Shown piece by piece: positions 123 to 62,489 of a stretch of DNA of 64,000 bases. The notes below the pieces were generated by a model. That model saw only the letters and a list, made by a program, of their open reading frames with translations, ran no database searches and was not told the DNA's origin. This DNA comes from an uncultured Candidatus Saccharibacteria bacterium (lineage in GTDB: Bacteria; Patescibacteriota; CAZHWT01): assembly GCA_964597145.1 (NCBI GenBank), contig CAZQWH010000001.1:102441-166440 (forward strand), written 5' to 3'. Numbering within the stretch: the first letter of the stretch is position 1; each line of letters begins with the position of its first letter. The translations under genes were made by a program, and so were the position numbers.

Positions 123-163
123 AGTAGGCAAGTAGGCAAGTAGGCAAGTAGGCGAGTAGGCGA
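123..163. repeat. Tandem 8-mer microsatellite (GGCAAGTA)3(GGCGAGTA)2
   Basis: Direct reading of ggcaagtaggcaagtaggcaagtaggcgagtaggcgag. It lies inside the repeat-rich island 1-500. Confidence 0.8.
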
Positions 164-339
164 GATAGCTAGATTGCAAGAGTGACTTCGCTCCTCATTC
201 CCCACCCTACCTCCCCGCCACTTCCGCCATTAGACTTGCAGGCTGAAGCTCTGAATCTGCAACGCTTGCGTCGCGCGGGCAGGTGATGAAGCCACGGGCT
301 TTAACCTGTGGAGAGTCATTTCCGCCCACACCCTGTCAT

Positions 340-475
340 TCCTGCGCCGCAGGCTCTGAGCAGAGTCGAAGAGGGGGCGGGAATCTAAACGCTTGGATTT
401 ACTGGGCGAGTTTCTGGAGACTTAGTTTAAGTAATTTTGAGTATCCGTCATTGCGAGCAAAGCGCGGCAATCTTG
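340..475 (+). repeat. Intergenic mosaic repeat modules: ctgagcagagtcgaagag and cgtcattgcgagcaaagcgcggcaatcttg
   Basis: Near-identical strings recur at 35618-35640, 42311-42330 and 59248-59300. Confidence 0.55.
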
Positions 476-3413: not shown

Positions 3414-3438
3414 ACCTTGACCAACCCTTGCTCGCCTC

Positions 3439-3478
3439 GTTTAACCTCAAAGGTTAAATACCTTTGAACCTAGGTTGC
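3439..3478. repeat. REP-like palindromic unit (left of RAYT)
   Basis: Hairpin ttaacc-tcaaa-ggttaa followed by the perfect palindrome aacctaggtt. It overlaps the 3' end of the RAYT gene. Confidence 0.6.
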
Positions 3479-4202
3479 TTGATTCAGTTTCCATCCTGTT
3501 ATACAGGCTTAAATCACCCAACGCATCCTCATTAGCTTCAAGTAACAAGTGTTGATCTGCTTTTAGTCTCCTCTGATAGTCGGCTCTATCTAGGATGAAC
3601 TGCTTGTACGATTCAGTGTTGTGGGAAAACGAATCAAGAATCGGATCTAAAATAGTAAAGCTATTGTCGCGAAGCTTGAGATATTCAGGCAAAGATGACC
3701 AAGGATAACTCCACAACTCGTCTATAGTTGAAACCGCATGCGACGTGTAGGGATTTAAATGAATATATCTTGATACATGGGTAAGCTGCGTAGCTGTTTC
3801 GATTCTGACAGATTTAAATCTAGTATGGAATAAGGTGCCAGAGCAGCTATGCTTGGCATTATAGTAACGAGTAAAGCTATTTTGAAATTGGCTTAGAAAA
3901 GTAGAAATTCCATTGCTAGTATTTTGCTGTAGGAGCAGGTGAAAATGGTTAGGCATTAAACAGTAGGCCAGAATACCCACCATTGGCTTATTTTGGTTCT
4001 GACCTGCAATCACAAGATGCCGATCTTGTGCATTCATCACTAAAAAGCGAGATAGGCTAACAGTGTTGTTAAAAAGATAATAGTGCAATGCTTCAACGGC
4101 TCGACGGTACTCAGTTGAATTTGTAAACGTCGGCTGGTGATTTTGCCCTCGATTAAAGACATGATATATCTGTCCGTTTACAAGCGGTTGTCGTTTTTGC
4201 AT
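3447..4202 (-). CDS. REP-associated tyrosine transposase (RAYT) / IS200-like Y1 transposase
   Basis: YHVFNRG, HuH motif LMPNHFHLLL and catalytic-Tyr motif RYIHLNP. Flanked by REP-like hairpins. Confidence 0.75.
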   Translation of the reverse strand: MQKRQPLVNGQIYHVFNRGQNHQPTFTNSTEYRRAVEALHYYLFNNTVSLSRFLVMNAQDRHLVIAGQNQNKPMVGILAYCLMPNHFHLLLQQNTSNGISTFLSQFQNSFTRYYNAKHSCSGTLFHTRFKSVRIETATQLTHVSRYIHLNPYTSHAVSTIDELWSYPWSSLPEYLKLRDNSFTILDPILDSFSHNTESYKQFILDRADYQRRLKADQHLLLEANEDALGDLSLYNRMETESSNLGSKVFNL

Positions 4203-4287
4203 ATGCCTCCAGTGAATCTGAGCAGAATATATGAATTGTTGCAGGTATACGCTACTCTCAGAATCTTGTCAATCTTAACTTCTTCAG

Positions 4288-4345
4288 GCAACCTAGGTCC
4301 AAAGCTATATCACCTTTGAGGTTAAATGACTTTGAACCTAGGTTA
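4288..4345. repeat. REP-like units (right of RAYT), an inverted doublet
   Basis: 4288-4306 gcaacctaggtccaaag is an inverted copy of 3461-3478. 4311-4343 cacctttgaggttaaatgactttgaacctaggtta has the same stem with a flipped loop plus the aacctaggtt palindrome. Confidence 0.6.
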
Positions 4346-4566
4346 CCTGATATATGTGATAGCACTTAATGATCGAAAATCAAAACGGTAAACGTCAAGT
4401 ATGTCTAGTGCAGCTAAAAATGAGGGGGTAGTGGGGATGAGGGTTTACACCTAAGCGATATGAGAGGCGGCTATTAATTGAATAATCAAAGATGGTAAAT
4501 AGCAGAGATTGCCGTACGAAGCTCTTATGCTGGTTAAATCTACAGCCCCTCTAGAAATGAAAAGAA

Positions 4567-6311: not shown

Positions 6312-6489
6312 TATTAGAAGGTTCTAAGTGCCAAAAACTCCCGTTATCGCCCCCCCCATCCGTCTCTGACACGAGGCAATTTTGTAGCGATTCTGGCCCA
6401 GTCAAGAAGACTGCCTGTCTACTTGCGCCGTATGACAGAGAGACAATTTAGGTGATGTTCAGTTAGATCACCTCGCTAGGGCCCGCGAT

Positions 6490-6565
6490 GACGGTTTTAA
6501 GTAGTTTGTTTCCAATTTCGAATTTCGAGTTTTCGCCTTTAACCTGTAGTTTTGAGTTTTACCCT
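6490..6565. repeat. AT-rich tcgaaatt-type repeat module (partial)
   Basis: ccaatttcgaatttcgagttttcgcc is related to the modules at 9514, 27865, 35790 and 63445. Confidence 0.4.
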
Positions 6566-9513: not shown

Positions 9514-9735
9514 GGGGACGTATCTCGTATATCAGTTTTTAGTTTTTAGATTTTGATTTGGTATTGGTGATTTCGAACTTGTGATTTGTTTCGACTTCGT
9601 CGAACGGCAGGCACGGATTTCGGATTTCGTACTTCGTATTTCACTCATCGCATCCCGAATTCCGCTCGCTTCGCCATAGCGAAAGCGAGGTGAGCATCCC
9701 GCATCCCTTTTCCGTATCCTGTATCCTAATACCTA
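9514..9735 (+). repeat. Composite intergenic repeat: AT-rich tcgaaatt module plus catcccgcatcc...tgtatcc module
   Basis: Homologous to 27822-27958, the reverse complement of 35790-35945, 63445-63570 and 36068-36088. Confidence 0.6.
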
Positions 9736-15469: not shown

Positions 15470-15692
15470 AGTTATCTTCACCACGCACCCTGGGTATTGC
15501 TACCTGGGGTGCAGATCATCTATTCACATTTTTCTCCAACATGTTAAAGAATAAATATATATTTATATACTTATTTATTACACCCTACGCACTACTCACT
15601 ACCAACTACTCAAAATGATTTGCATTTTGCCGTCTCAGATAGATGATGCTATAATCTGGACATCGGAAAGGCAGAGATGAGAGGAGTGAGAC

Positions 15693-16229: not shown

Positions 16230-16620
16230 CCCAGCCTGCAGTAGCCAATACACCAGGTGGTGCCCCAGCACCACCTTTTTCTGCTTTGAGTCAAACTAAA
16301 GAATGTACATATCACCAACCACCAACCACCAAACACCAAACACTGCTACAGCATAGCTGGTATCTCTGATGTTTCTACACTTGCCAAGTGGTTATCTCCT
16401 GACACCTAACTTGACTTGAACTTACTCCCTTGCACCCACCCTGCCAGCATTTATCTGAGTTAAATAGGGTTTGTTACGTAGCAAGCTACGTAACATTTTC
16501 CGCTTGCCTGTTGATGATTGAATGATTTAAGCGAATAATACCCGAACATCCTTTTTTATTTTATAGTAGAATGGTTGCTGAGTCGGCTTAGCTTTAAAAA
16601 TACATGGAGAGGTGGTTTCT

Positions 16621-18500: not shown

Positions 18501-18600
18501 GCTACGCAAATTGCCACTCTTGAGGTGTAGTCTAATCCGACATCGGATGTCGATATCTCCGGCGACGTCGGGATATAGTTGTTTTAATGCTACAACGGTT

Positions 18601-18648
18601 ATTACCACCCCCCCCCCCCCCGAGGTGGTAATCCTCTGACACCTCGGG
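18601..18648. promoter_or_regulatory. Hairpin with a 14-nt poly-C loop (C run 18608-18621), plus a second overlapping hairpin
   Basis: attaccacc-C14-ga-ggtggtaat, then ccgaggtg...cacctcgg. It lies upstream of the CDF gene. Confidence 0.5.
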
Positions 18649-18763: not shown

Positions 18764-19675
18764 ATGCCTACCAACCAACGCCGTGTTGCAATTTATGCCT
18801 CGTTTGCCGCCAACATTGGGGTGGCCATCGCTAAATTATTGGCCTATTTCGCCACCGGAGCGACATCGTTGCTGGCCGAGTCGGTGCACTCAGTGGTAGA
18901 TAGCAGCAATCAAATTTTATTGCTAATTGGTAGCCATCAGTCATTGCGCCAGCCAACTTCAGCTCATCCACTAGGCTATGGTCGGCTGCATTATTTGTAT
19001 GCGTTTCTTATCTCTATCGCCCTATTTTCCCTAGGTGGCCTATTCGCGATTTTTCAGGGATGGGAAAAAGTACAGCATCCCCATCCGATAGAGTCACCAG
19101 CTATCGCCTATGTTATTATTGCGGTCTCAATGCTATTTGAGGGCCTGGCGCTGCGCACGGCACTCCACGAAGCTCGCCATTTTAAGCCACACCGCCAAAA
19201 TTGGCTAGCCTTTTTGCAACAAACAAAGTCTGTCAATTATGTCGTGCTAGCCTTGGAAGACACAGCCGCGCTGATTGGCTTAACCATCGCAACTATTGGG
19301 GTAACGATGTCGTTAGCAACCAATAATCCAGTCTGGGATGGGGTAAGCACTTTGGCTATTGGCGTTCTATTGATTGTTGTAGCCGTATTTTTAGGCAGGG
19401 AAGTCGTCTCCTTGCTAATTGGCGAGGCTGCCGATCCAGAAACCGAGGCCAAAATACGTCAAATTGTCCTAAAAGTAGACGACGTTGAGCGGATCATTAA
19501 TTTGCGAACAGTTTATGTTGGCCCATCAGACTTGTTTGTCGCGATGAAGGTTGCAGTTGATGGCCGCGACAGTGGTCGGCAGATTACCCAAGCTATAGAC
19601 CAAATTAAATTGCAATTGCGCCAATCTTTTCCGATTGTGCACCGGGTCTACATTGAACCAGATAGTGAAGATTAA
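18764..19675 (+). CDS. Cation diffusion facilitator (CDF) family metal efflux transporter
   Basis: Six TM helices, the LLAESVHSVVDS signature and a C-terminal cytoplasmic domain. Confidence 0.8.
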   Translation: MPTNQRRVAIYASFAANIGVAIAKLLAYFATGATSLLAESVHSVVDSSNQILLLIGSHQSLRQPTSAHPLGYGRLHYLYAFLISIALFSLGGLFAIFQGWEKVQHPHPIESPAIAYVIIAVSMLFEGLALRTALHEARHFKPHRQNWLAFLQQTKSVNYVVLALEDTAALIGLTIATIGVTMSLATNNPVWDGVSTLAIGVLLIVVAVFLGREVVSLLIGEAADPETEAKIRQIVLKVDDVERIINLRTVYVGPSDLFVAMKVAVDGRDSGRQITQAIDQIKLQLRQSFPIVHRVYIEPDSED

Positions 19676-27821: not shown

Positions 27822-27958
27822 TGATCGCCACGCGGTTGCTTTCGCCAGAGGTGGACAGGCGTGATGACAGGAGGGATTCGAAAATCGTATATCAGGTTTT
27901 AGGTTTGGTGTTTCTGATTTCGAGCTTCTGAGTTGTTTCGAATTTCGTATTTAATCTT
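27822..27958 (-). repeat. Composite intergenic repeat, inverted relative to the 35790-35945 copy
   Basis: gatcgccacgcggttgctttcgccagaggtggacaggcgtgatgacaggagggattcgaaaatcgtatatc... is the reverse complement of 35790-35945 with few mismatches. Confidence 0.65.
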
Positions 27959-28079
27959 ACAGTAATCCGATCTCTCATCTCCCACCTCCTATCTAACCTA
28001 CTCCGTTCTGGTATAATACCCATACACATACCCACCTCCTTGGTGGGTTTTGTCGAATCTTAGTGGGAGAGCGTACAGC

Positions 28080-33540: not shown

Positions 33541-34917
33541 TTAGTCTGATTTGGCTGTTTGGTTTTGAATCCCTACGGCCGAAATAATTCCACCCAGCAA
33601 TAACAGGCCAGCTGTCACTAAAAGACTACGGTGAAAACCACTAACATCGAGCGATGTCCCTATAATCACACCAATAGTTGCAATAGCCAGTAGTCCAGCA
33701 ATCCGAGACACGGCGTTATTAATTGCCGAACCAATCCCAGCCTGCTCATAGCTAATAGCATCCAAAACAGCGGTGGTGAGGGGTGCAACGGTTATAGATA
33801 GGCCGACAGCAAAAAGTATAATACCCGGCAGCAAGGCAACGTAGTCAACCGACTGATCCACGCCCAGCATAGTCATAAAACCAATCGAGCCCACAATCGG
33901 TCCGGCGGCCATAAACCAACGCGGACCATACCGGCCAGCCAGTGTCCCAAATCGAGAAGATAAAAAGAACATAATAATAGTAATCGGTATCAGTGTCAGC
34001 CCGGCTTGGGTGGCAGAGTAACCGCCAACTTGTTGCACAAAGATCGAAATGATAAAAGTAGCCAGCGATAAACCAGCATAGATCAGCAACGTTGCTAGAT
34101 TGCCAACCCAAAAATTGCGATGAGCAAATAAGCCTAACGGTAGCATCGGTTGAGGTGTGTGCTTTTCTTGCCAGCCAAATGCGAATAAAGATAGCGCACC
34201 AACGGTAAAAGGCATATAAATGAGTGGGTGCAACCACCCGTAATGCGATTGCTCAATCAGGGCAAAAACAACGCCACCCAACCCAACCACGCATAGCAAC
34301 GCTCCCCCTAGGTCAAGTTTTATCCGCTTGTGTACCAAAGGGTCTAATTGGATCTGCCTCAGTAACCACAAGGTGATGACTACGGGAAGAGTATTAATAG
34401 CAAAAATCCAGCGCCACGAACCTGCATCCACCAGCAAACCGCCAACCAATGGCCCAACAATAAAAGCAATACCCGTCCACCCCGTCCACGTTCCAATAGC
34501 TTTTGCTCGCAACTGACCAGTAAAGGCCGAAATAATAAAAGCTAAAGAGCTAGGCACTAAAATAGCTCCGGCTACTCCCTGGAGAGTGCGGGAAACAATT
34601 AAAAACTCTGCTATCGGCGCAACCGCACACAGCAACGAGGTTACACCAAAGCCGAGCAAGCCAAGTATCAGCATACGCTTACAGCCCCACAAATCAGAGA
34701 GCGAGCCGGCAATCAACATGAAAGCCCCCAGACTAATCAGGTAAGCATCTACCACCCATTGCTGGATAGAGAGATTACCACTAAATTCATCAGCGATTGC
34801 TGGGAGGGCCACATTAACTACCGACCCATCTAAAAAGGCAATAAACGACGCCAAAATGCTCACCCACAACACGAGTTTTTGTTGTGTATCCATATAGTTC
34901 ACTATACTCCCAGTCAC
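33541..34917 (-). CDS. MFS transporter (DHA2-like, 14 TMS)
   Basis: About 14 TM helices, with MFS motifs GxLaDrxGrkxxl-like ([10 protein letters not shown]). Confidence 0.8.
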
Positions 34918-34992
34918 CAGATACAGCTAGGACGGAATAATTTGACACTAGAAGGACTGCATCCCTATACTGAGGCCAGAAGACTGCCTGCT

Positions 34993-35562
34993 ATGGAATC
35001 AATTGATATCCCTCCTAAATATAAATACGCGGGAACCACCCCGCCTTCAAAATTAGCTGTTTTTCTCAAGCAGCGCTGGATGCTGGTAACCAGCTTAATA
35101 ATCTGCGCGGTAATTGCTTTAAGTCTTGGCACAATCGTCTGGGTTTTGGCTCAACCAGCCCCCGAATCCTCGCACCGAAGCACCATTAACCCACCTACGC
35201 CAACGCCAACTGTTAGACCTTCAGCAACCCCAACTCCGACGCCAAGCCCTACGCCAACCCCAACCCCGACATTAACTCCCACTCCCACCCCAACTCCGTC
35301 GCCAACCCCTACCCTCAACGCCAATATTACGCCATACACAGCAGCCGACTGCAGTGGAGCTAAACAGGTGTATATTTCTAATCCCCATGGTGCACCTGCT
35401 TCAATCCAGCCTCCAGGCAGCTGGCACACCGTCCGAACCTACGAGTATGGTCAAAAAATAACCGTTTTCTGCCAGATTGGCACCACCGATTATGCGCCAG
35501 AGTATGCTCTGGTTAATGACACCTATATTGCCACTTCCGACCTATCCACCACCAAACCGTAG
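34993..35562 (+). CDS. Membrane-anchored protein with long PT-repeat linker
   Basis: TM helix, then about 50 aa of (PTPT/PSPT)n, then a C-terminal Cys-containing domain. Confidence 0.45.
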
Positions 35563-35789
35563 TTGGTAGAGAGTAGACCCTCCCTCCCCATCATTCCCGC
35601 GCCCTAAGCCCTGAGCAGAGTCGAAGAGAAAGCGGAAATGACAATATAAGTACCAAAGGCCTGACCCCTAAAACGTATATACGCCCGTATATACGTTGGC
35701 CAAAATAACTCAGATAAATGATGGAAGGGTAGTGTGTAGGGTGGGATAGGAAACTAGAAGGCAGAAGGCAGAAGGCGGGATGATTAAAT

Positions 35790-35945
35790 ACAAAATTAGA
35801 AATTCGAAATGAGAAACAAATCACAAGCTCGAAATCACAAACACTAACCAAAAACCCGATATACGATATACGATCTTCGAATCCCTCCCGTCATCTCGCC
35901 TGTCCGCCTCTGGCGGAAGCAACCGCGTGGCGATCTTCTCTTTCT
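35790..35945 (+). repeat. Composite intergenic repeat (AT-rich tcgaaat module plus cgtcatctcgcctgtccgcctctggcggaagc module)
   Basis: Homologous to 9514-9735, 27822-27958 and 59436-59470. Confidence 0.65.
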
Positions 35946-35980
35946 CATCAAGATAGCCACAGTCGCTAGTACTTCTTATT

Positions 35981-36160
35981 CAAGCCTAATCCTTCAACCA
36001 TGAGCTTGAGACTGTCAAATGGGCGATGAACCCACGAGAGATCAGAGTCCAATGGCTTCGCAATACCGCATCCCGCATCCTGTATCCCGACACCCGACAC
36101 CCGACACCCGACACCCCTCCCGTCATTCTGGAACGAAGCGTAGCGAAGAGATAGAATCCC
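35981..36160 (+). repeat. Repeat element copy 1: cctaatccttcaaccatgagcttgagac module, internal (CCGACAC)4 microsatellite (36087-36114), then gtcattctgg module
   Basis: Aligns with 42109-42385 except that the internal microsatellite there is (CAGCATC)7. Confidence 0.7.
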
Positions 36161-36234
36161 TCCACTATGCACCGCTCAAAGTCCACCTCACCTGATAGCC
36201 ATGTTAAAAGATATATACAGAGATAAATACAAAG

Positions 36235-36264
36235 AATTATATAATTAATTATATAATTAAATTT
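36235..36264. promoter_or_regulatory. AT-only double palindrome, copy 2
   Basis: aattatataattaattatataattaaattt, identical to copy 1, upstream of the 36468 ORF. Confidence 0.6.
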
Positions 36265-36467
36265 ACTGAATAATTTGCATCAAAATTACTCCTTTAGGCT
36301 CAAAAGAAGTACTAGGGTAGCATCAATTAACCCCAGCAACGAGCAAGACGAGAACCGTCCTAAATTACGACAAAAAGACTTATAGTATATTCTTGGAGGT
36401 AAAAATATGGTATGATTACAATTACAAGCGAGTGGCCATTTGTTCGTTGACCTGGGAGAGAAGCACG

Positions 36468-36746
36468 ATGGTGGGAATCATTGCGATTTCGGATGAAACA
36501 ACCGAAATTTTGCAAGAGTTTCGCGACAAGTTCGACCAACTCAATCAGCCAGTCGGTATCGATATTAGCGCTGACCAGTTGCTGGAGCAGATTGCAGCCA
36601 TAAACACGCTGCGTAGGCAAGTCGATGACTGGAATATAGAGCAGCTCGATCAATGTAATCAGGCCGATGCCATGATTGCGTCGAGTGATCTGCTAGAGAT
36701 CATCGAGGCCGCCATCAACGACCGGTACGACATTTTGGCTGGCTAA
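36468..36746 (+). CDS. Hypothetical small acidic protein
   Basis: ORF downstream of AT palindrome copy 2, followed by terminator 36777-36804. Confidence 0.4.
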   Translation: MVGIIAISDETTEILQEFRDKFDQLNQPVGIDISADQLLEQIAAINTLRRQVDDWNIEQLDQCNQADAMIASSDLLEIIEAAINDRYDILAG

Positions 36747-36776
36747 CAGGCAACTAACTTGTCCGGCTTAAACCAA

Positions 36777-36804
36777 GCCCTGCCGTTTTAGGCGGGGCTT
36801 TTTG
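36777..36804 (+). terminator. Terminator gccctgcc-gtttta-ggcggggc-TTTTT
   Basis: Stem with one mismatch and a T-run. Member of the GGCGGGG family. Confidence 0.55.
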
Positions 36805-36889
36805 CTTTTTACCTACGTACGTATTTGAATTACCTAAACCTGCATTTTATAATTGACCAGAATGGCGTAGGCACTATAGGAGAGCCACC

Positions 36890-37285
36890 ATGAGCCTTAA
36901 GCACAAGTCCATTCATTCCGGATGGAAGCGGCAAAACGCAGAGACTAAACAGTCGCCAACCAAGGCCAAGCAAAGCCAACTCCAGCGTCTAGAGAGCCAG
37001 TCACTCGTGCTTTACTGTAGGCCCGATACCATATCCAACCAAGATTGGCAACGAATCGAAGCCTGGATACGGCAGACCGTGCCATGCCCTGGACACAGGC
37101 TTCAGGTACTCATCTATATTTGCACCTGTCGGCAGTCGCCTAAGCCTCTTCAGCTGCGGTTAACCCACGAATTAGCCGGGATAAACGCCAACCAGCGGTC
37201 CCGAGTCAGCTTGCGCCAGCATAACCACCAGAACCAGCTGGTGCGGCTGGAAATTATTCTACGTCAAACCGTGCGCCTGGCTTAA
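36890..37285 (+). CDS. Hypothetical basic protein
   Basis: 131-aa ORF with an aggagagccacc RBS. Confidence 0.4.
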   Translation: MSLKHKSIHSGWKRQNAETKQSPTKAKQSQLQRLESQSLVLYCRPDTISNQDWQRIEAWIRQTVPCPGHRLQVLIYICTCRQSPKPLQLRLTHELAGINANQRSRVSLRQHNHQNQLVRLEIILRQTVRLA

Positions 37286-37339
37286 GCCAGGCGCATCCCG
37301 TCTTTTAATTAATAGCAGGAGTTACGAAACTATTCTTCA

Positions 37340-37462
37340 GTAGCAGTCATGCTGGAGCCAAAGGTGATAGCTCTCTCATGAGAGCTGTAGGGGGATCCTA
37401 GGTGTTAAAGCACGAGCCGGTGCGCGTCTATTAAATACGCTATGCTCCAGAATGACCACATC
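37340..37462 (-). repeat. Repeat module gtcattctggagc...gtatttaatagacgc...ggctcgtgctttaacac (minus-strand copy)
   Basis: Reverse complement matches 42274-42385 and 59288-59352. Confidence 0.6.
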
Positions 37463-38091
37463 TGGAATATTGTAGTTATCTCTGCATCAGTTTCGTAATC
37501 CAAGCTAGTGCGTAACTATTCATGATTCCCAATAAAATCATCTAAAGTAATGCTTTGTTGTTGAACGAGGGAATAGTGTTTGGTAGAGTAGAAAAACTCG
37601 TGGATAGATTCACGCGACGAGCCGGAATGGATCGCCAAAAGGCTGACCACCGAACCCATGTTCGTGATGATTTCCTCGAGTTAGGGGATGGGGTGGCGGT
37701 ACGCTGCCAGCATGCGTCTAAGAGCCGAAGCTCGAATAGGGTAGAAGCCCAACCAACCGTGCGTTGGTAGATACTACCACCCTTCCCCGTATCGGGGGAC
37801 GCTGGGCGACCAGCTAACCTCGGGGGTGGATAACCTCCATCCAAGGTCTGTGCTCCAGCCGATCAGCCTAGCTGATTTAGGGTAGCAGACCACCACCCCG
37901 GTACCCATGAGGTTCCGGGGTGATTTTCTTTCTTTTTACAAATTAGCAAGCCACGTAAGGGTCTCTTTGATGCATTGAACGACTAACTATAATTCATTGA
38001 GTAAATCCACACTTGGTTGACAAGTAATCAGCTCAGGTTTAAACTCCGAAAAAGCTTCAGAAACTCGACGTTACCCAGGAGAAAGAGACTC

Positions 38092-41956: not shown

Positions 41957-42108
41957 TCAACCGTGGTTATCGCGGATAATACAGAGCAGACAATATCCTG
42001 TCAAGAATTGACACCCACAATATTTGAAACAAATCCCAAACCAGACCTGCCCGCCATGCTTTCGCTGGCCAAGCAGGCAGGTTGCCGCAGTCGTTATCAC
42101 TCCTCATT

Positions 42109-42385
42109 CAAACCTAATCCTTCAACCATGAGCTTGAGACCGTCGAATGGGTGATGAGGCTTGAGTCTTTAGAGTCCAACAGCTTCACCATGACGTATAC
42201 TAACCTTCTCCAGCATCCAGCATCCAGCATCCAGCATCCAGCATCCAGCATCCAGCATCCCGACACCCTCCCCGTCATTCTGTCATTCGGCTCTGATCTC
42301 TAGCGACCTCATCGCTCAGACTCGAAGAGGAACGCAGTGTATTTTAGACGCGAAGCGGCTCGTGCTTTAGCACATAGAATCCCCT
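42109..42385 (+). repeat. Repeat element copy 2: cctaatccttcaaccatgagcttgagac module, (CAGCATC)7 microsatellite (42211-42260), then gtcattctgtcattcgg...gtattttagacgc...ggctcgtgctttagcacatagaatc module
   Basis: Aligns with 35981-36160 and 59288-59352. Confidence 0.7.
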
Positions 42386-42441
42386 CTACGCTCTACGCTC
42401 TCTCCGGCCTCCTCCACCCATAAATGCGCTCAATATCGGGG

Positions 42442-59173: not shown

Positions 59174-59199
59174 TAGGCACTGGGCACCTGCCCGCAAAC

Positions 59200-59560
59200 A
59201 CCAGCAAGCTGGCTTGCGTGGCGGGTGGGGTAGACAGACCTCTTCTCTTCGTCATTGCGAGGAACCAAGCGACGTGGCAATCTTCTCTGACTGTCATCCT
59301 GGAGCGGAGCGTATTTTAGACGCAAGTGGCTCGTGCACTAGCACATAGGATCTGGTCATCAAATCAGAAATCACAAAGCCTAAATACGAAACAAATTCCA
59401 ACTCAGAAGTTATAAGATTGAAACACATAACCGACCGTCATTGCGCCTGTCAGCCTCTGGCTAAAGCGGCCTGTGCTGAGCGCAGTCAAAACAAGCGCAT
59501 CATTCTCCTCTGATTGTCATTCTGGAGCCAGCGAAGCGTGGCGATAGAATCTTGAGAGCG
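59200..59560 (+). repeat. Intergenic mosaic repeat island (gtcattgcgagg module, gtcatcctggagcggagcgtattttagacgcaagtggctcgtgcactagcacatag module, partial AT-rich module, ccgtcattgcgcctgtcagcctctggc module, gtcattctggagccagcgaagcgtggcgatagaatc)
   Basis: Each sub-module has homologues at 428-475, 42274-42385, 37340-37462(-), 35876-35945 and 36121-36160. Confidence 0.65.
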
Positions 59561-59627
59561 CCAATCAGCAGAACAACGCAACCTATATACAACTCTTGCT
59601 AAGTATTATTTACAGAGTTAAATACAG

Positions 59628-59655
59628 TTAATTATATAATAAATTATATAATTAA
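59628..59655. promoter_or_regulatory. AT-only double palindrome, copy 3 (variant TTAATTATATAATAAATTATATAATTAA)
   Basis: About 120 bp upstream of ORF 59778. Confidence 0.6.
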
Positions 59656-59777
59656 CTAACGCATATTCTTTCAATCGTACCATAAGATTCCTAGAAAGAA
59701 TCTTATGGTAATTTACAAGTAGGTGGCTGTGTGGTATTTTATGTGACATTGCTCGATCTGAGTCTGGAGATAGATAA

Positions 59778-60065
59778 ATGGTGGCGACACATTACGATCT
59801 TTTTATGCCGCGTGAAGCTGTTGGAGATCGCAAACACGAGTTAGCAGGTTTGATCCACGAACTGACAGAGCTTGGAGTCACCGCAACTCTCGATTCCACT
59901 TCCTGGCCCGAAGTTCTATGGGTTATCATCCCACAGGGCACAACTGCGGAGACAGTAGGCGGCATCTTGCTTCTTGCCACCGTCCATTATAGACACTTAG
60001 GACTTAACAGCATCGGGGTAACGCCATCTATGCACAATGGCTCAGTTGCTCTCCGATTCAAGTAA
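59778..60065 (+). CDS. Hypothetical small protein (cassette gene 1)
   Basis: RBS ggag 9 nt upstream. Inserted between map and infA. Confidence 0.4.
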   Translation: MVATHYDLFMPREAVGDRKHELAGLIHELTELGVTATLDSTSWPEVLWVIIPQGTTAETVGGILLLATVHYRHLGLNSIGVTPSMHNGSVALRFK

Positions 60066-60182
60066 GGCTCAATCATTCATGGGCTCACTGACATCAGCGA
60101 GCCCATCCCTTATCTTCATTATTTGGTAAACTAAAACCATGTTAACACTAATGTATGTTAACACTAACAGAGATAAAAGTGA

Positions 60183-60213
60183 TTAATTATATAATAAATT
60201 ATATAATTAATTT
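60183..60213. promoter_or_regulatory. AT-only double palindrome, copy 4, ending 13 nt before the ATG of cassette gene 2
   Basis: ttaattatataataaattatataattaattt, followed by RBS aaaggtgg and ATG 60226. Confidence 0.6.
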
Positions 60214-60225
60214 GAAAGGTGGAAC

Positions 60226-60756
60226 ATGTCCAGTTTTGTCTATCATGCAGTGCCCAGAAACTTTCAGGGCACTACAATTTACCCACTCAACCAATTAAAA
60301 AACGTATATCCTACTATCTATACTGAGCGAGTTAAAGCTTACTCCTGGCGACCCGAGGTTATGGAGCAGCCAGTCCACCCTCTCAATTGCTTCTGGAATG
60401 ATTGTATATTCCTCACGGCCACACCGCCGCAATTAGTTAAGCAAGAATTGTATAAAATTGATCCAGGCCACCAGTTTCCATCCAAATTCTGGAAGATTGA
60501 TGCCCATACTTTAGAGCCTCAAAACACCACCATTTACAATTTTGCCACCAACGTTCGCCCACATCCTGCCCAAGATTTTTTACCGTATAACCCAGGTAAT
60601 CTTGAAGAATATACTCAAGTACCATCAAGAACCATAGAATATTGGCAGCAGTGCATTTACGAAGGCCGGAAAAGAATGCTGCTGTACTTGTATATTCCAC
60701 ACATTATGTACAAAGGCACCATCAACACTCGCGAATTGGAAATTGTGGAGGTATAG
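60226..60756 (+). CDS. Hypothetical aromatic-rich protein (cassette gene 2)
   Basis: 176 aa with a strong RBS. Its stop lies 2 nt before the next start. Confidence 0.45.
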   Translation: MSSFVYHAVPRNFQGTTIYPLNQLKNVYPTIYTERVKAYSWRPEVMEQPVHPLNCFWNDCIFLTATPPQLVKQELYKIDPGHQFPSKFWKIDAHTLEPQNTTIYNFATNVRPHPAQDFLPYNPGNLEEYTQVPSRTIEYWQQCIYEGRKRMLLYLYIPHIMYKGTINTRELEIVEV

Positions 60757-60758
60757 AC

Positions 60759-61574
60759 ATGTCGGCTGAAATTACGGTAAATAGCAATCCGGATATAGCT
60801 CTGTCGGGATATGTTCTTAATGTGCTTGGCTTAAAAAAACACCCTTGGACCAAGCGCGGTCCACTGGCTGGCGTGCCAGATGAGTTGATTGAGAAGGCAG
60901 CAGCATACATAGAGTTGAAGTCTAAAATCAGCTTTCAACAGCACCCATTAACAGATCTATCATCCCAAAACCAATCGACAAAGAACCTAATCAAAGAAAT
61001 TGAGCAACTACACAATCGCCAATTAGACCATTACACTGAGAATATTCAAGCCAGTCAGGACTTTTTACAAAAAGTTCTGGATCGAACCGAAGGTCAACTA
61101 GCAGATGTAATTGAGCAATCGACCCGGATATCGTGGCCGTTTGAGCAAGTGTATCTAGTGCCATCGCTTTACCAGGGCGGTACAGTGCATGGTCAGTATG
61201 TATTTATGGGATTCTTCCCCGGTAAGCCAGGAAAGAAAAATGCATCGGGAGTGATACATGAACTAGTTCATGTAAACACGTATGAAGCAAGCAAGCCGCT
61301 ACGGCAATCGTTAAAGCTACCCACGGACTCTATCGAAGCGGCAACCGTTTTAGTGACAAATAAAGCGGTACATCATCTCAATCACCAAATCAAATCTTTA
61401 GACCTGACCGACAACAGCTTTTCAACTTATTATCGAGACTATATTCTTGATCATGGTCAGAATTTAACCAACCTTGCTACTAAGCATGTTAAATATGCCG
61501 AGCTAGTGCAAGCAATTGACCAGTATTTCATCGACAACAAGTACCCGGGCTACTTTAAGCAGCATGGAATTTAG
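60759..61574 (+). CDS. Hypothetical HExxH-motif protein, putative zinc metallopeptidase (cassette gene 3)
   Basis: GVIHELVHVNTYE. Translationally coupled to gene 2. Confidence 0.45.
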   Translation: MSAEITVNSNPDIALSGYVLNVLGLKKHPWTKRGPLAGVPDELIEKAAAYIELKSKISFQQHPLTDLSSQNQSTKNLIKEIEQLHNRQLDHYTENIQASQDFLQKVLDRTEGQLADVIEQSTRISWPFEQVYLVPSLYQGGTVHGQYVFMGFFPGKPGKKNASGVIHELVHVNTYEASKPLRQSLKLPTDSIEAATVLVTNKAVHHLNHQIKSLDLTDNSFSTYYRDYILDHGQNLTNLATKHVKYAELVQAIDQYFIDNKYPGYFKQHGI

Positions 61575-61678
61575 TCCATTAGGAAGCTATATCCTATAGT
61601 AATTGACAATTTCCCTGAGTAGTAGTAATATACACCAACGTTAAGACCTTCTAGTTCTTGTCAAGAAAGGCAGAAGCT

Positions 61679-61987
61679 ATGTCGACGATGGTTAAACAGA
61701 TTTGTGTCAATTGTGGCAAGGAATTTGCAACCAACAACGGTTCCAATTCCTGCTACGATTGCACCTTGTCGCGGACTGCCGGCGGTCTGATTCCGGAGGA
61801 AGGTGACTTCCGCACTGCGCGTATCATCTCCGGAACGATGAGCAACCAGCAGCATCAAGACTTGGTTGGTGACTTGTCATCAATTGAGCTTGATGACCCT
61901 GCGCCGGAGACGGAGAATTGCCCGTACTGCGGGTACTATGACCGGCGCTGGTGCAATAGTAGCAATTGCCCGGGCTCTGAGAGTTAA
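61679..61987 (+). CDS. Hypothetical zinc-ribbon protein (cassette gene 4)
   Basis: CVNCGKE...CYDC...CPYCGYYDRRWCNSSNCPG. RBS gaaagg. Confidence 0.45.
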   Translation: MSTMVKQICVNCGKEFATNNGSNSCYDCTLSRTAGGLIPEEGDFRTARIISGTMSNQQHQDLVGDLSSIELDDPAPETENCPYCGYYDRRWCNSSNCPGSES

Positions 61988-62258: not shown

Positions 62259-62489
62259 ATGGCCAATAGCAATAGTATTGAAATTGAGGGAGTAGTGGTT
62301 GAGGCGTTGCCTAACACTATGTTTCGGGTAAAGGTGGATATTGGCGATGGACGAGAACACATTGTGCTAACCACTCTTTCCGGGAAGATGAAGACCCGTT
62401 GGATTCGGGTTTTGCCCGGAGACAAAGTAAAACTAGTAGTTGTTCCGCCCGATTTAACCCAAGGTAGAATTATTTACCGCTTTAGATAA
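62259..62489 (+). CDS. infA: Translation initiation factor IF-1
   Basis: S1-like OB fold, [17 protein letters not shown]. Confidence 0.95.

Follow-up and report, generated by a model that had tools for sequence, protein, structure and literature searches.

Between the genes of a 64,000-nt stretch of contig CAZQWH010000001.1 (the whole stretch is called the window below), short sequence modules recur in different combinations, as at positions 9514-9735. What kind of element are they, and what spreads them? The initial annotation described five modules at nine loci and compared them with miniature inverted-repeat transposable elements (MITEs), or with repetitive extragenic palindromes (REPs) and bacterial interspersed mosaic elements (BIMEs), possibly mobilised by a REP-associated tyrosine transposase (RAYT) at 3447-4202, or alternatively with small RNA genes. 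The five modules reduce to two classes, hairpin cassettes with the frame GTCAT...ATC and degenerate tandem arrays of heptamers, plus one orphan, module 5. It is likely that the loci consist of DNA repeat cassettes of the CGTC/NTS type, NTS being the hairpin that the nuclease SsnA binds and cuts, together with heptamer arrays. The preferred reading, with a probability of about 0.55, is that they form a DNA-level mosaic of cassettes and arrays, resembling Neisseria intergenic mosaic elements (NIMEs) or BIMEs, with a recognition mechanism of the Ssn type.

Cassettes and heptamer arrays of the window

All nine loci hold repeats. Self-BLAST of the window gives extended alignments (E down to 1e-30), not low-complexity similarity alone, and a repeat search and Tandem Repeats Finder (TRF) agree with it. 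The repeat-bearing spacers number nine and total 3,925 nt (6.1% of the window, whose GC content is 46%), and all lie between called genes. Positions 27823-27995 align with 35935-35755 in reverse complement (78% over 184 nt, E 1.4e-30). These copies, given as 27822-27958 and 35790-35945, had been described as reverse complements with few mismatches; the orientation stands, but the identity is only 78-82%. Other pairs are 35951-36130 and 42079-42282 (69% over 205 nt, E 1.5e-21), 36122-36260 and 59516-59655 (E 3e-11), and 308-384 and 35566-35639 (E 4.5e-6). Three copies, 37381-37456 on the minus strand, 42329-42394 and 59293-59352, are mutually similar: 37381-37448 in reverse complement matches 42329-42394 (E 9e-8), 37394-37456 in reverse complement matches 59293-59352 (E 4.5e-6), and 42329-42381 matches 59301-59352 (E 6e-7).

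The focal locus 9514-9735 has three parts. Heptamer arrays occupy 9515-9643, a 10-bp hairpin (9665-9689; DNA z -2.46) sits in a degenerate cassette-like frame, and C-rich heptamers at 9700-9735 abut the gene start at 9735. Positions 9515-9592 correspond to the reverse complement of 35813-35889 (73% over 79 nt, E 3e-5), and 9551-9597 match 27898-27944 directly (81% over 47 nt). The earlier list lacked a cassette at 6465-6493 on the minus strand and heptamer arrays at 15585-15612 and 16313-16343. It placed repeats inside the ribosomal operon, correctly for rpsK/rpsD but wrongly for map/infA: the spacer 59174-59777 separates map from a 95-aa hypothetical open reading frame (ORF), and infA lies about 2.5 kb further on, at 62259-62489. 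In a plasmid collection, distant blastn found no similar elements except a C-rich heptamer run.

Module 1, described as a distinct 100-nt AT-rich unit, is a degenerate tandem heptamer array (lag-7 identity 0.47-0.59). Modules 2, 3 and 4 are not separate either, but belong to a single structural class, GTCAT...ATC cassettes with differing cores. The window contains 13 such cassettes and one doubtful degenerate copy (9644-9699). The frame reads (C/T)GTC, then a 5' arm of A, T and three variable bases (N, N, N), the core, a 3' arm of the complementary N', N', N' followed by A and T, and finally C and (C/T). The arms form an A-T pair, a T-A pair and three variable pairs, and the GTC and 3' C that flank the stem are unpaired. 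The core is about 8-90 nt long, often has its own small hairpin, and falls into families FA to FG. Ten cassettes are on the plus strand and three on the minus strand, mostly single or head-to-tail on one strand.

The closing stem was examined in 18 cassettes, picked for core or BLAST similarity with no regard to arm complementarity. Pairing reaches about 95% at pairs 1-5. Covariation is seen at pairs 3-5 (UA12/CG4; GC7/CG6/UA1; CG12/UA5); pair 1 is AU and pair 2 is UA, each in 16 of 17 distinct sequences; some cells are G-U pairs. The observed pairing was reached by none of 500 shuffles, a control that overstates the significance since the family members are related by sequence, and slid registers pair at 25-37%. 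Pairs 6-8 are unsupported, being unpaired in at least 50% of cells, with the exception of the cassette at 334-386, which has 8 pairs. In the alignment, T5, C6, A7 and T8 are invariant and G4, A25, T26 and C27 at least 90% conserved. The base before GTC is C or T in 11/13 window cassettes. C follows the stem in 16/18 sequences and is followed by a pyrimidine, so the tail reads CYN, not CCA.

The strict frame has 8 matches in the window against a mean of 0.71 in 100 dinucleotide shuffles (max 4), and seven of the eight fall in the spacers that had been reported. Its density per 100 kb is 12.5 in the window, 1.8 in relatives from the candidate phyla radiation (CPR) and 1.25 in unrelated genomes (879 kb). 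A looser rule, GTCAT plus any stem of at least 5 bp within 140 nt, gave 25 matches against about 23 in shuffles; it was dropped for this lack of enrichment and the stricter frame used instead. The best-folding cassette region is 35882-35946 (z -2.82). Folding stability is not claimed here as evidence, because most cassettes are no more stable than shuffles.

The second class comprises 15 period-7 arrays found by TRF. Their lag-7 identity of 0.47-0.80 corresponds to an excess of 0.17-0.55, compared with -0.006 +/- 0.046 (max 0.136) in coding controls. The arrays are degenerate, AT-rich or C-rich, and G-poor on the GTCAT strand, and at six places one lies directly 5' of a cassette. Per 100 kb, there are 23.4 in the window, 18.4 in cassette-bearing contigs, none in cassette-free relatives and 3.9 in controls. 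The two classes also differ in composition (GC 0.49-0.66 for cassettes, 0.22-0.39 for AT-modules).

Module 5 is neither a cassette nor a heptamer array. It has two copies, 85% identical over the central 79 nt, and each is followed by a C-rich heptamer array and then by a GTCATTCTG cassette. It was considered as a coding or structured-RNA element and rejected (no conserved ORF, no Rfam match, a weak alifold consensus fold).

Composite segments of 180-300 nt have been duplicated as units, and arms and cores are shuffled between cassettes. FD and FE, for example, have common arms GTCATTCTGGAGC...ATAGAATC and different cores. The spacers 35563-36392 and 59174-59777 each hold 3-4 cassettes of different families together with heptamer modules. 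The elements of the window are as follows.

123-161, plus strand: tandem octamer array AGTAGGCA, 4.9 copies (TRF).
315-326, plus strand: solo 5' arm GTCATTTCCGCC, followed by a C-rich spacer and then by the FA cassette at 334-386.
334-386, plus strand: complete FA cassette TGTCATTCCTGCG...core...GCGGGAATCT with near-NTS arms (11/13 and 9/9 identical) and an 8-bp stem in the DNA fold; 315-386 is homologous to 35566-35639.
446-473, plus strand: compact FC cassette CGTCATTGCGAG-CAAAGCGC-GGCAATCT, the arm type of at least 168 viral-contig copies.
6465-6493, minus strand: FG cassette CGTCATCGCGGGCCCTAGCGAGGTGATCT with one G-T stem pair.
6495-6565, minus strand: AT-rich degenerate heptamer array of the TTTCGAA type, directly 5' of the cassette at 6465-6493; lag-7 identity 0.55.
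9515-9643, minus strand: AT-rich degenerate heptamer arrays (AGTTTTT, CGGATTT and others), reversed relative to 35790-35887; lag-7 identity 0.52.
9644-9699, plus strand: possible degenerate cassette cTCATCGC...GGTGAgcATCC around the 10-bp hairpin CTCGCTTCGC-CATA-GCGAAAGCGAG, of low confidence, with a weak alignment to the reverse complement of 6465-6493.
9700-9735, plus strand: C-rich degenerate heptamers of the CATCCCG type, resembling 36063-36090; lag-7 identity 0.62.
15585-15612: heptamer array CTACTCA, 4 copies (TRF), in a spacer with no adjacent cassette.
16313-16343: heptamer array CACCAAA, 4.4 copies (TRF), in a spacer with no adjacent cassette.
27823-27869, minus strand: FB cassette TGTCATCACGCC-TGTCCACCTCTGGCGAAAGC...GGCGATC.
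27882-27960, minus strand: AT-rich heptamer array 5' of the cassette at 27823-27869, in a composite of at least 180 nt duplicated as 35755-35935; lag-7 identity 0.52.
35589-35642, plus strand: degenerate FA cassette aTCATTCCCGCG...GCGGAAATg.
35745-35887, plus strand: G-poor heptamer arrays (AGAAGGC, 3 copies; AAATTAG type; CGATATA, 2.6 copies), directly 5' of the cassette at 35889-35936; lag-7 identity 0.56-0.59.
35889-35936, plus strand: FB cassette CGTCATCTCGCC-TGTCCGCCTCTGGCGGAAGC...GGCGATCT, the sole cassette with a clearly stable fold (z -2.82), whose core occurs in 10 metagenome contigs.
35951-36059, plus strand: module 5, copy 1 (85% over 79 nt to copy 2).
36060-36120, plus strand: C-rich heptamer arrays CCGCATC and CCCGACA (4.4 copies), directly 5' of the cassette at 36121-36159; lag-7 identity 0.76.
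36121-36159, plus strand: FE cassette CGTCATTCTGGAAC...GATAGAATCC.
37393-37457, minus strand: FD cassette gGTCATTCTGGAGC...GGCTCGTGCTTTAACACCTAGGATCC.
42079-42190, plus strand: module 5, copy 2.
42205-42272, plus strand: C-rich heptamer array TCCAGCA, 7.4 copies (100% matches), directly 5' of the cassette at 42273-42382; lag-7 identity 0.80.
42273-42382, plus strand: composite cassette with a solo arm CGTCATTCT, then GTCATTCGG..., an FA-like core CAGACTCGAAGAG fused to an FD core, closed by ATAGAATCC.
42383-42402, plus strand: heptamer array CTCTACG, 2.6 copies (TRF), 3' of the cassette at 42273-42382.
59250-59283, plus strand: compact FC cassette CGTCATTGCGAG-GAACCAAGCGACGT-GGCAATCT.
59292-59353, plus strand: FD cassette TGTCATCCTGGAGC...CATAGGATCT, with an arm change that is compensatory relative to 42273 (ATTCT/AGAAT to ATCCT/AGGAT).
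59354-59435, plus strand: AT-rich, G-poor degenerate heptamer module 5' of the cassette at 59436-59488; lag-7 identity 0.47.
59436-59488, plus strand: FB-like cassette CGTCATTGCGCC-TGTCAGCCTCTGGCTAAAGC...GCGCAGTCA, with a compensatory change in the inner hairpin.
59515-59552, plus strand: FE cassette TGTCATTCTGGAGCCAGCGAAGCGTGGCGATAGAATCT, whose arms recur with another core in another contig (L303).
63445-63568, unstranded: inverted pair of AT-rich heptamer arrays (GAAATAA type, then TTTAGGA, 4.4 copies) that fills the rpsK-rpsD spacer, without a cassette; lag-7 identity 0.59.

The host lineage and other genomes

Judged from its sequence, the host is a Patescibacteria/CPR bacterium. The named SecY relatives are Levybacteria, WWE3 and 'Patescibacteria group'. 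Many Logan assemblies and an NCBI contig contain the window sequence with 100% identity, so the repeats are not an assembly artefact. The operon was compared with the orthologous operons of relatives at 68-80% SecY identity. The spacer between map and the next gene is 604 nt here and 20-429 nt in the relatives, and the rpsK-rpsD spacer is 130 nt here and 26-29 nt in the relatives. The contigs of these relatives contain neither cassettes nor period-7 arrays. Because the relatives have compact spacers without the repeats, the arrays are lineage-specific gains in otherwise compact operons, obtained in the lineage of the window. In the contig of the closest relative (L141, 1-17210), a 7,158-bp block from SecY to L17 occurs twice in tandem, which probably reflects faulty assembly or a circular path that was linearised wrongly.

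Cassettes are also found in other genomes. The FB core CGCCTGTCCGCCTCTGGCGGAAGC occurs in 10 metagenome contigs, in 8 of which it lies in a GTCAT...ATC frame with different arms, including the compensatory pair ATCTC/GAGAT in place of ATTGC/GCAAT. Extra cassettes, for which no selection was made, adjoin this core. A derivation of the FB core from a known RNA gene was considered for two contigs (L127 and L128) and rejected; the core is near a tRNA-Ser gene but outside it. One contig (L135) has a cassette at the rplV/rpsC junction. In another (L129; also L126 and L131), an ORF for a DegT/DnrJ/EryC1 aminotransferase (348-1754) contains three in-frame cassettes (481-537, 889-924 and 962-1031), in both orientations and with the reading frame unbroken.

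The FC arm type GTCATTGCGAG...GGCAATC is present in at least 168 copies on at least 120 IMG/VR viral contigs of 32-70% GC. Just outside the searched pattern, a pyrimidine is found in 89% of these copies on the 5' side and in 97% on the 3' side, and their cores are usually small hairpins. Other genomes also contain NTS-type arms with true long cores, head-to-tail tandem cassette runs (L192), cassette-module-cassette arrays similar to NIMEs (L185), inverted cassette pairs (L132, L133 and L147) and cassettes of mixed orientation (L135, L147 and L192). The layout of a solo 5' arm, a spacer and a full cassette, seen in the window at 315-386 and 42273-42382, recurs there as well. These occurrences suggest that the GTCAT...ATC cassettes are a cosmopolitan family.

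A scan of genome contigs with the pattern TAGACGCN{4,5}GGCTCGTGC gave 119 further loci (L007-L125, mostly Collinsella and high-GC taxa). All were rejected as chance matches, since 16 specified bases are too few for 596 Gb and there is no similarity beyond the pattern; they were reused as the unrelated-genome control. A literature search with cassette sequence returned only unrelated primers, and no paper linking Patescibacteria with REPs was found in the literature searched.

Several other features of the window were observed. A double 12-mer palindromic motif, TTAATTATATAA x2, is present in perfect or near-perfect form at 2598-2626, 36235-36260, 59628-59655 and 60183-60210, in each case 16-140 nt upstream of a plus-strand ORF (2763, 36393, 59778 and 60226). 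Upstream of it is a sequence similar to TACAGAG(A/T)TAAATACA, and the upstream similarity is seen, for example, between 36200-36272 and 59595-59667. Two Logan contigs terminate exactly at this motif, and the relative L141 has a related AT-palindrome (4348-4418) at the equivalent place downstream of map. It looks like a shared operator or promoter element. Between map and infA in the ribosomal-protein operon, 59778-61987 contains four hypothetical genes (95, 176, 271 and 102 aa) without a credible Pfam or NCBIfam family; the relatives have one or two other small genes in this interval. A C12 homopolymer forms the loop of an inverted repeat, TTATTACCACC-C12-GAGGTGGTAAT, at 18590-18640 in the spacer upstream of the gene at 18764, and could be a slippage-prone switch. 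Inside the ORF 34879-35562, a 30-nt/6-nt periodic CCAAC(N)CC sequence (35194-35324) probably codes for a low-complexity linker rich in Thr and Pro; it has no relation to the intergenic repeats.

Proposed recognition mechanism and rival explanations

The Neisseria NTS, CGTCATTCCCGCGMAVGCGGGAATCYRG, is bound and cut by SsnA, a 94-aa GIY-YIG nuclease described in 2025 by Chenal et al. that acts on single-stranded DNA (ssDNA) only and on one strand only (PMC11893778). For binding, the C right after the palindrome is most critical, and for cleavage the 3 nt before the palindrome matter most, while the identity of the loop does not matter and the loop position accepts extensions of ssDNA (PMC11893778). 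The Ssn system limits transformation; its link to compact NTS-type repeats is experimental only in Neisseria species and Wolbachia (PMC11893778). The invariant positions of the window cassettes, GTC, the A-T and T-A pairs and the 3' C, are those critical for SsnA.

The cassettes are not autonomous. They would fold on one strand when single-stranded, and a trans-acting protein encoded elsewhere in the genome would recognise the fold. The likeliest partner would be an Ssn-type single-domain GIY-YIG ssDNA nuclease that binds the hairpin via GTC and C on either side and cleaves a few bases 5' of the hairpin. This system might restrict or shape recombination of incoming ssDNA. The breaks and the shared arms could let cassettes duplicate, nest and exchange cores, and slippage repair next to the cut could feed the heptamer arrays, which may grow and shrink by slippage. 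The assignment of an Ssn-type nuclease as the partner is tentative and has less than an even chance of being right.

Several observations weigh against the Ssn-type reading, besides the relatedness of the cassettes in the stem test. Most cassettes fold no better than shuffles (z about 0). There is no presence/absence polymorphism showing mobility: all contigs of the organism (L001-006 and L136-140) are 100% identical, and two other contigs (L147 and L148) have their cassette pair in common. The link between the heptamer arrays and cleavage is speculation. The stem is 5 bp, compared with 8-9 bp in CGTC REPs (except for 334-386, with 8 pairs), and the cores of 8-90 nt contrast with the 4-5-nt loops of the latter. 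The published pattern of SRM, the Ssn-related motif, is HGTCWYN(0-2)YYVSBRHN(0-5)WNVSBRGN(0-2)RNCYNB. It matches no cassette and has 0 matches in the window against 0.23-0.26 expected; with the loop relaxed to 100 nt, it has one unrelated match against 3.3 expected. No GIY-YIG ORF was detected in the window and the 9.4 kb downstream (73 kb in all; regular expression, and phmmer with a YhbQ sequence). No cassettes flank the CPR GIY-YIG genes at the three loci inspected (L146, L147 and L153). GIY-YIG is not enriched in 1.05 Mb of cassette-bearing viral loci, where hidden Markov model (HMM) and jackhmmer searches found a single such ORF.

One probe for GIY-YIG was a consensus, which retrieved 5,282 genuine small GIY-YIG proteins, and the other was an HMM built on a CPR family possibly distinct from Ssn/cd10448. 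These negatives are weak, because Ssn is trans-acting and a flanking repeat accompanies only 31% of ssnA homologues (PMC11893778), the search around the window covered 73 kb, and the probes are imperfect. The ORFs beside the arrays match no Pfam or NCBIfam family. Two of the inspected loci, L146 (GCA_016214055.1, JACRPE010000026.1; 3921-4330) and L153 (3925-4330), have single-domain GIY-YIG ORFs of 86-87 aa that end inside the 5' end of an intact tRNA-Val gene. Just upstream of these ORFs are a partial duplicate of a tRNA 5' end and a conserved hairpin, TTTACCCGAAC...GGGTGAAG. The arrangement has the appearance of a small element, carrying GIY-YIG, that has inserted at tRNA genes of CPR bacteria.

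The arrays could instead have arisen neutrally, as by-products of replication slippage, of duplication on a local scale and of gene conversion where spacers permit it, without any dedicated protein and with a frame inherited by ancestry. Heptamer arrays are classic slippage products, composite segments are copied as units, no target-site duplications (TSDs) are seen, and no partner enzyme was obtained from the window or the cassette-bearing viral loci. This explanation is nevertheless unlikely. Cassettes from unrelated genomes of 32-70% GC have the frame, arm types and flanking pyrimidines in common despite different cores, a pattern that requires horizontal spread or selection on the exact positions that SsnA reads; besides, covariation preserves the stem, and dispersed copies lie tens of kb apart in both orientations. 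That the cassettes act as RNA, as small RNA genes or as cis-acting hairpins in operons (terminators, mRNA stabilisers or processing sites), is rather improbable. Twelve of the 13 window copies (6/7 loci) are in sense relative to neighbouring genes, so that transcription of them is probable, G-U pairs occupy a few cells of the stem, and REPs in other bacteria can stabilise mRNA (PMC3733652). Against this, Rfam has no match at gathering score in the whole window and nothing credible at E<=10 in 35500-37600, the folding z is about 0 for most copies, and the stems are only 5 bp and without T-tracts. The mixed orientation in L135, L147 and L192, the in-frame copies in both orientations inside a coding gene, and the relatives that manage without cassettes at the same operon junctions also argue against a function as RNA. 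The earlier suggestion of small RNA genes is thus not upheld.

The two explanations by transposition fare worse. The ORF at 3447-4202 on the minus strand is a single-copy Y1 (IS200-like) transposase (Pfam Y1_Tnp). With its invariant HFH and SRYIHxNP motifs, it is predicted to be catalytically intact, Y1 enzymes act on ssDNA hairpins, its best NCBIfam match is the RAYT model, and a second cassette-bearing contig (L131) encodes the same family. Mobilisation of the cassettes by this enzyme, as REP/REPIN-type elements, is still very unlikely. The RAYT match of 58.5 bits is below the cut-off of 80. Inverted hairpin repeats of 53 nt (3437-3489 and 4277-4329; 83% complementary, DNA z -3.1) bracket the gene. 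They contain a 7-bp hairpin CAAAGGT-TAAAT-ACCTTTG, have no similarity to the cassettes and occur only at this gene within the 64 kb. Likewise, the L131 homologue has unrelated terminal hairpins of its own. No Y1 gene is present in 1.05 Mb of cassette-bearing viral loci, the tag here is CGTC, not GTAG, and CGTC repeats are reported to be unlinked to Y1 genes (PMC3733652). The cassettes are therefore probably not substrates of the neighbouring Y1 transposase. The nearest relatives of the Y1 ORF (about 50-55% identity) are in Patescibacteria (named ones being Levybacteria, Daviesbacteria and Parcubacteria), its right flank is palindromic (4284-4350), and the unit 3437-4329 matches the 'TIRtron' type of Di Nocera et al. 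(PMC3733652). Finally, the cassettes are small, non-coding, dispersed and intergenic, as would be expected of MITEs derived by deletion from a DDE-type insertion sequence and moved in trans. But units can be as short as 28 nt, terminal inverted repeats are limited to the 5-bp stem, no DDE transposase is encoded in the window, and there is no consistent TSD: flank repeats such as CCTCC or TTCTCT are limited to 2-3 of 12 cassettes, the flanks all being rich in pyrimidines. An origin as MITEs is hardly credible.

A bolder reading is that the cassettes and heptamer arrays are two products of a single uncharacterised ssDNA-hairpin-directed system in CPR bacteria, in which a nuclease or recombinase reads a GTC/C-flanked 5-bp stem whatever the loop and cuts just 5' of it. 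We consider this quite unlikely. If it were true, the loop would carry arbitrary cargo cores and exchange them between cassettes and genomes, as a modular recombination site of the attC kind without genes, and repeated cut-and-slippage repair would yield the polar, G-poor upstream arrays. This would amount to a new mechanism of repeat generation and recombination, more than an odd REP family. If the nuclease link is true, cassette-rich CPR genomes would offer natural loop-extended substrates for ssDNA tools and a handle on the policing of DNA uptake and recombination in CPR episymbionts. In practice, the repeats break assemblies and seed spurious ORFs in metagenome annotation.

Comparison with known repeat families

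In 2008, Elhai et al. reportedly described (Genome Res 18:1484) cyanobacterial STRR heptamer arrays together with dispersed hairpin repeats of 20-30 nt that insert into them. The head-to-tail arrays of 7-nt units in intergenic DNA are alike here, although the phylum is different and the likeness is one of description. No GTCAT...ATC frame is known for the STRR-associated repeats. Integron attC sites are imperfect palindromes with short conserved outer arms and a variable centre of tens of nt, recognised in a strand-specific manner as folded ssDNA. The cassettes have the same combination of short conserved arms and a highly variable centre. The analogy is functional only: the arms do not read RYYYAAC/GTTRRRY, the sites have no gene cassettes between them, and an integrase is absent from the vicinity.

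The resemblance to REPs and BIMEs proposed initially places the loci in the right general category, given the CGTC-type tag and the likeness of the arrays to NIMEs. As in the REP-BIME-REPIN/RAYT systems of E. coli and Pseudomonas, the hairpins are short and extragenic, have an unpaired tag, form mosaic arrays and are thought to be recognised as ssDNA. The tag is GTC instead of GTAG, however, and REPs of those systems flank the RAYT gene, whereas the Y1 gene here has unrelated private hairpins.

NIMEs consist of 20-bp dRS3 inverted repeats, ATTCCC-N8-GGGAAT, that flank RS elements of 50-150 bp; the dRS3 hairpins alternate with variable segments of about 100 families, the GC content forms a wave, and NIMEs are stated to be absent outside Neisseria (PMC1797815). 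Similarly, the window has clustered intergenic arrays of a short hairpin motif with many variable families and GC alternation. The arrays look recombinogenic, with arms and cores shuffled and units nested, and L185 is literally a cassette-RS-cassette array. The variable segment is mostly inside the hairpin arms here, while in NIMEs the dRS3 palindromes flank RS. The window has no compact dRS3; ATTCC/GGAAT arms are found in two cassettes, with the variable segment inside. Heptamer tandem arrays, a major component here, are outside the NIME definition (PMC1797815).

The CGTC-tagged REP super-family, which includes RPE-4 and RPE-6 of Rickettsia and, as the members studied best, the NTS/dRS3 repeats of Neisseria, is found in several phyla and is characterised by an unpaired terminal tag (CGTC, or TGTC/CCTC), A-T pairs at the first two stem positions, a short tail and no transposase (PMC3733652). 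The described families have 8-9-bp stems, 4-5-nt loops and the tail consensus CCA, and are mostly head-to-head dimers. They are not associated with Y1 transposases, the RAYT-associated REPs carrying GTAG (PMC3733652). What spreads them has been open since 2013, as they 'apparently lack a dedicated transposase' (PMC3733652). The cassettes share the tag (C or T before GTC in 11/13 window copies and in 89% of 168 viral copies), the A-T first two stem pairs and the lack of an associated transposase, and the in-frame intragenic copies of L129 are paralleled in CGTC REPs and Rickettsia RPEs. The tail, C in 16/18 and then a pyrimidine, is CYN and not the CCA consensus, and the window copies mostly have the same orientation instead of forming head-to-head dimers.

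In their recognition positions the cassettes resemble NTS/SRM. Both are oriented hairpins in which an unpaired CGTC/TGTC precedes the stem, the closing pairs are A-T/T-A, and the stem is followed immediately by C and then by a pyrimidine; both are intergenic and clustered. The arms of the cassette at 334-386, ATTCCTGCG...GCGGGAAT, are essentially NTS (11/13 and 9/9, or 20/22 bases identical). The closing stem of 5 bp is often AT-rich here, compared with 7 or more GC-rich pairs in SRM, the cores of 8-90 nt compare with SRM loops of 0-5 nt, and the host is a CPR bacterium while the known hosts are mainly Pseudomonadati. Since the published SRM pattern misses the cassettes, Ssn-type motifs may be more numerous than current counts show. 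The cassettes depart from the SRM pattern, from the 8-9-bp stem with a 4-5-nt loop, and from the layout in which dRS3 flanks RS. For these reasons, they are probably a variant that would work like NTS/SRM, not a member of those families. It extends the NTS/SRM recognition frame to a CPR/Patescibacteria genome, in loop-extended forms with long exchangeable cores that invade otherwise very compact ribosomal-protein operons and are tied to heptamer tandem arrays.

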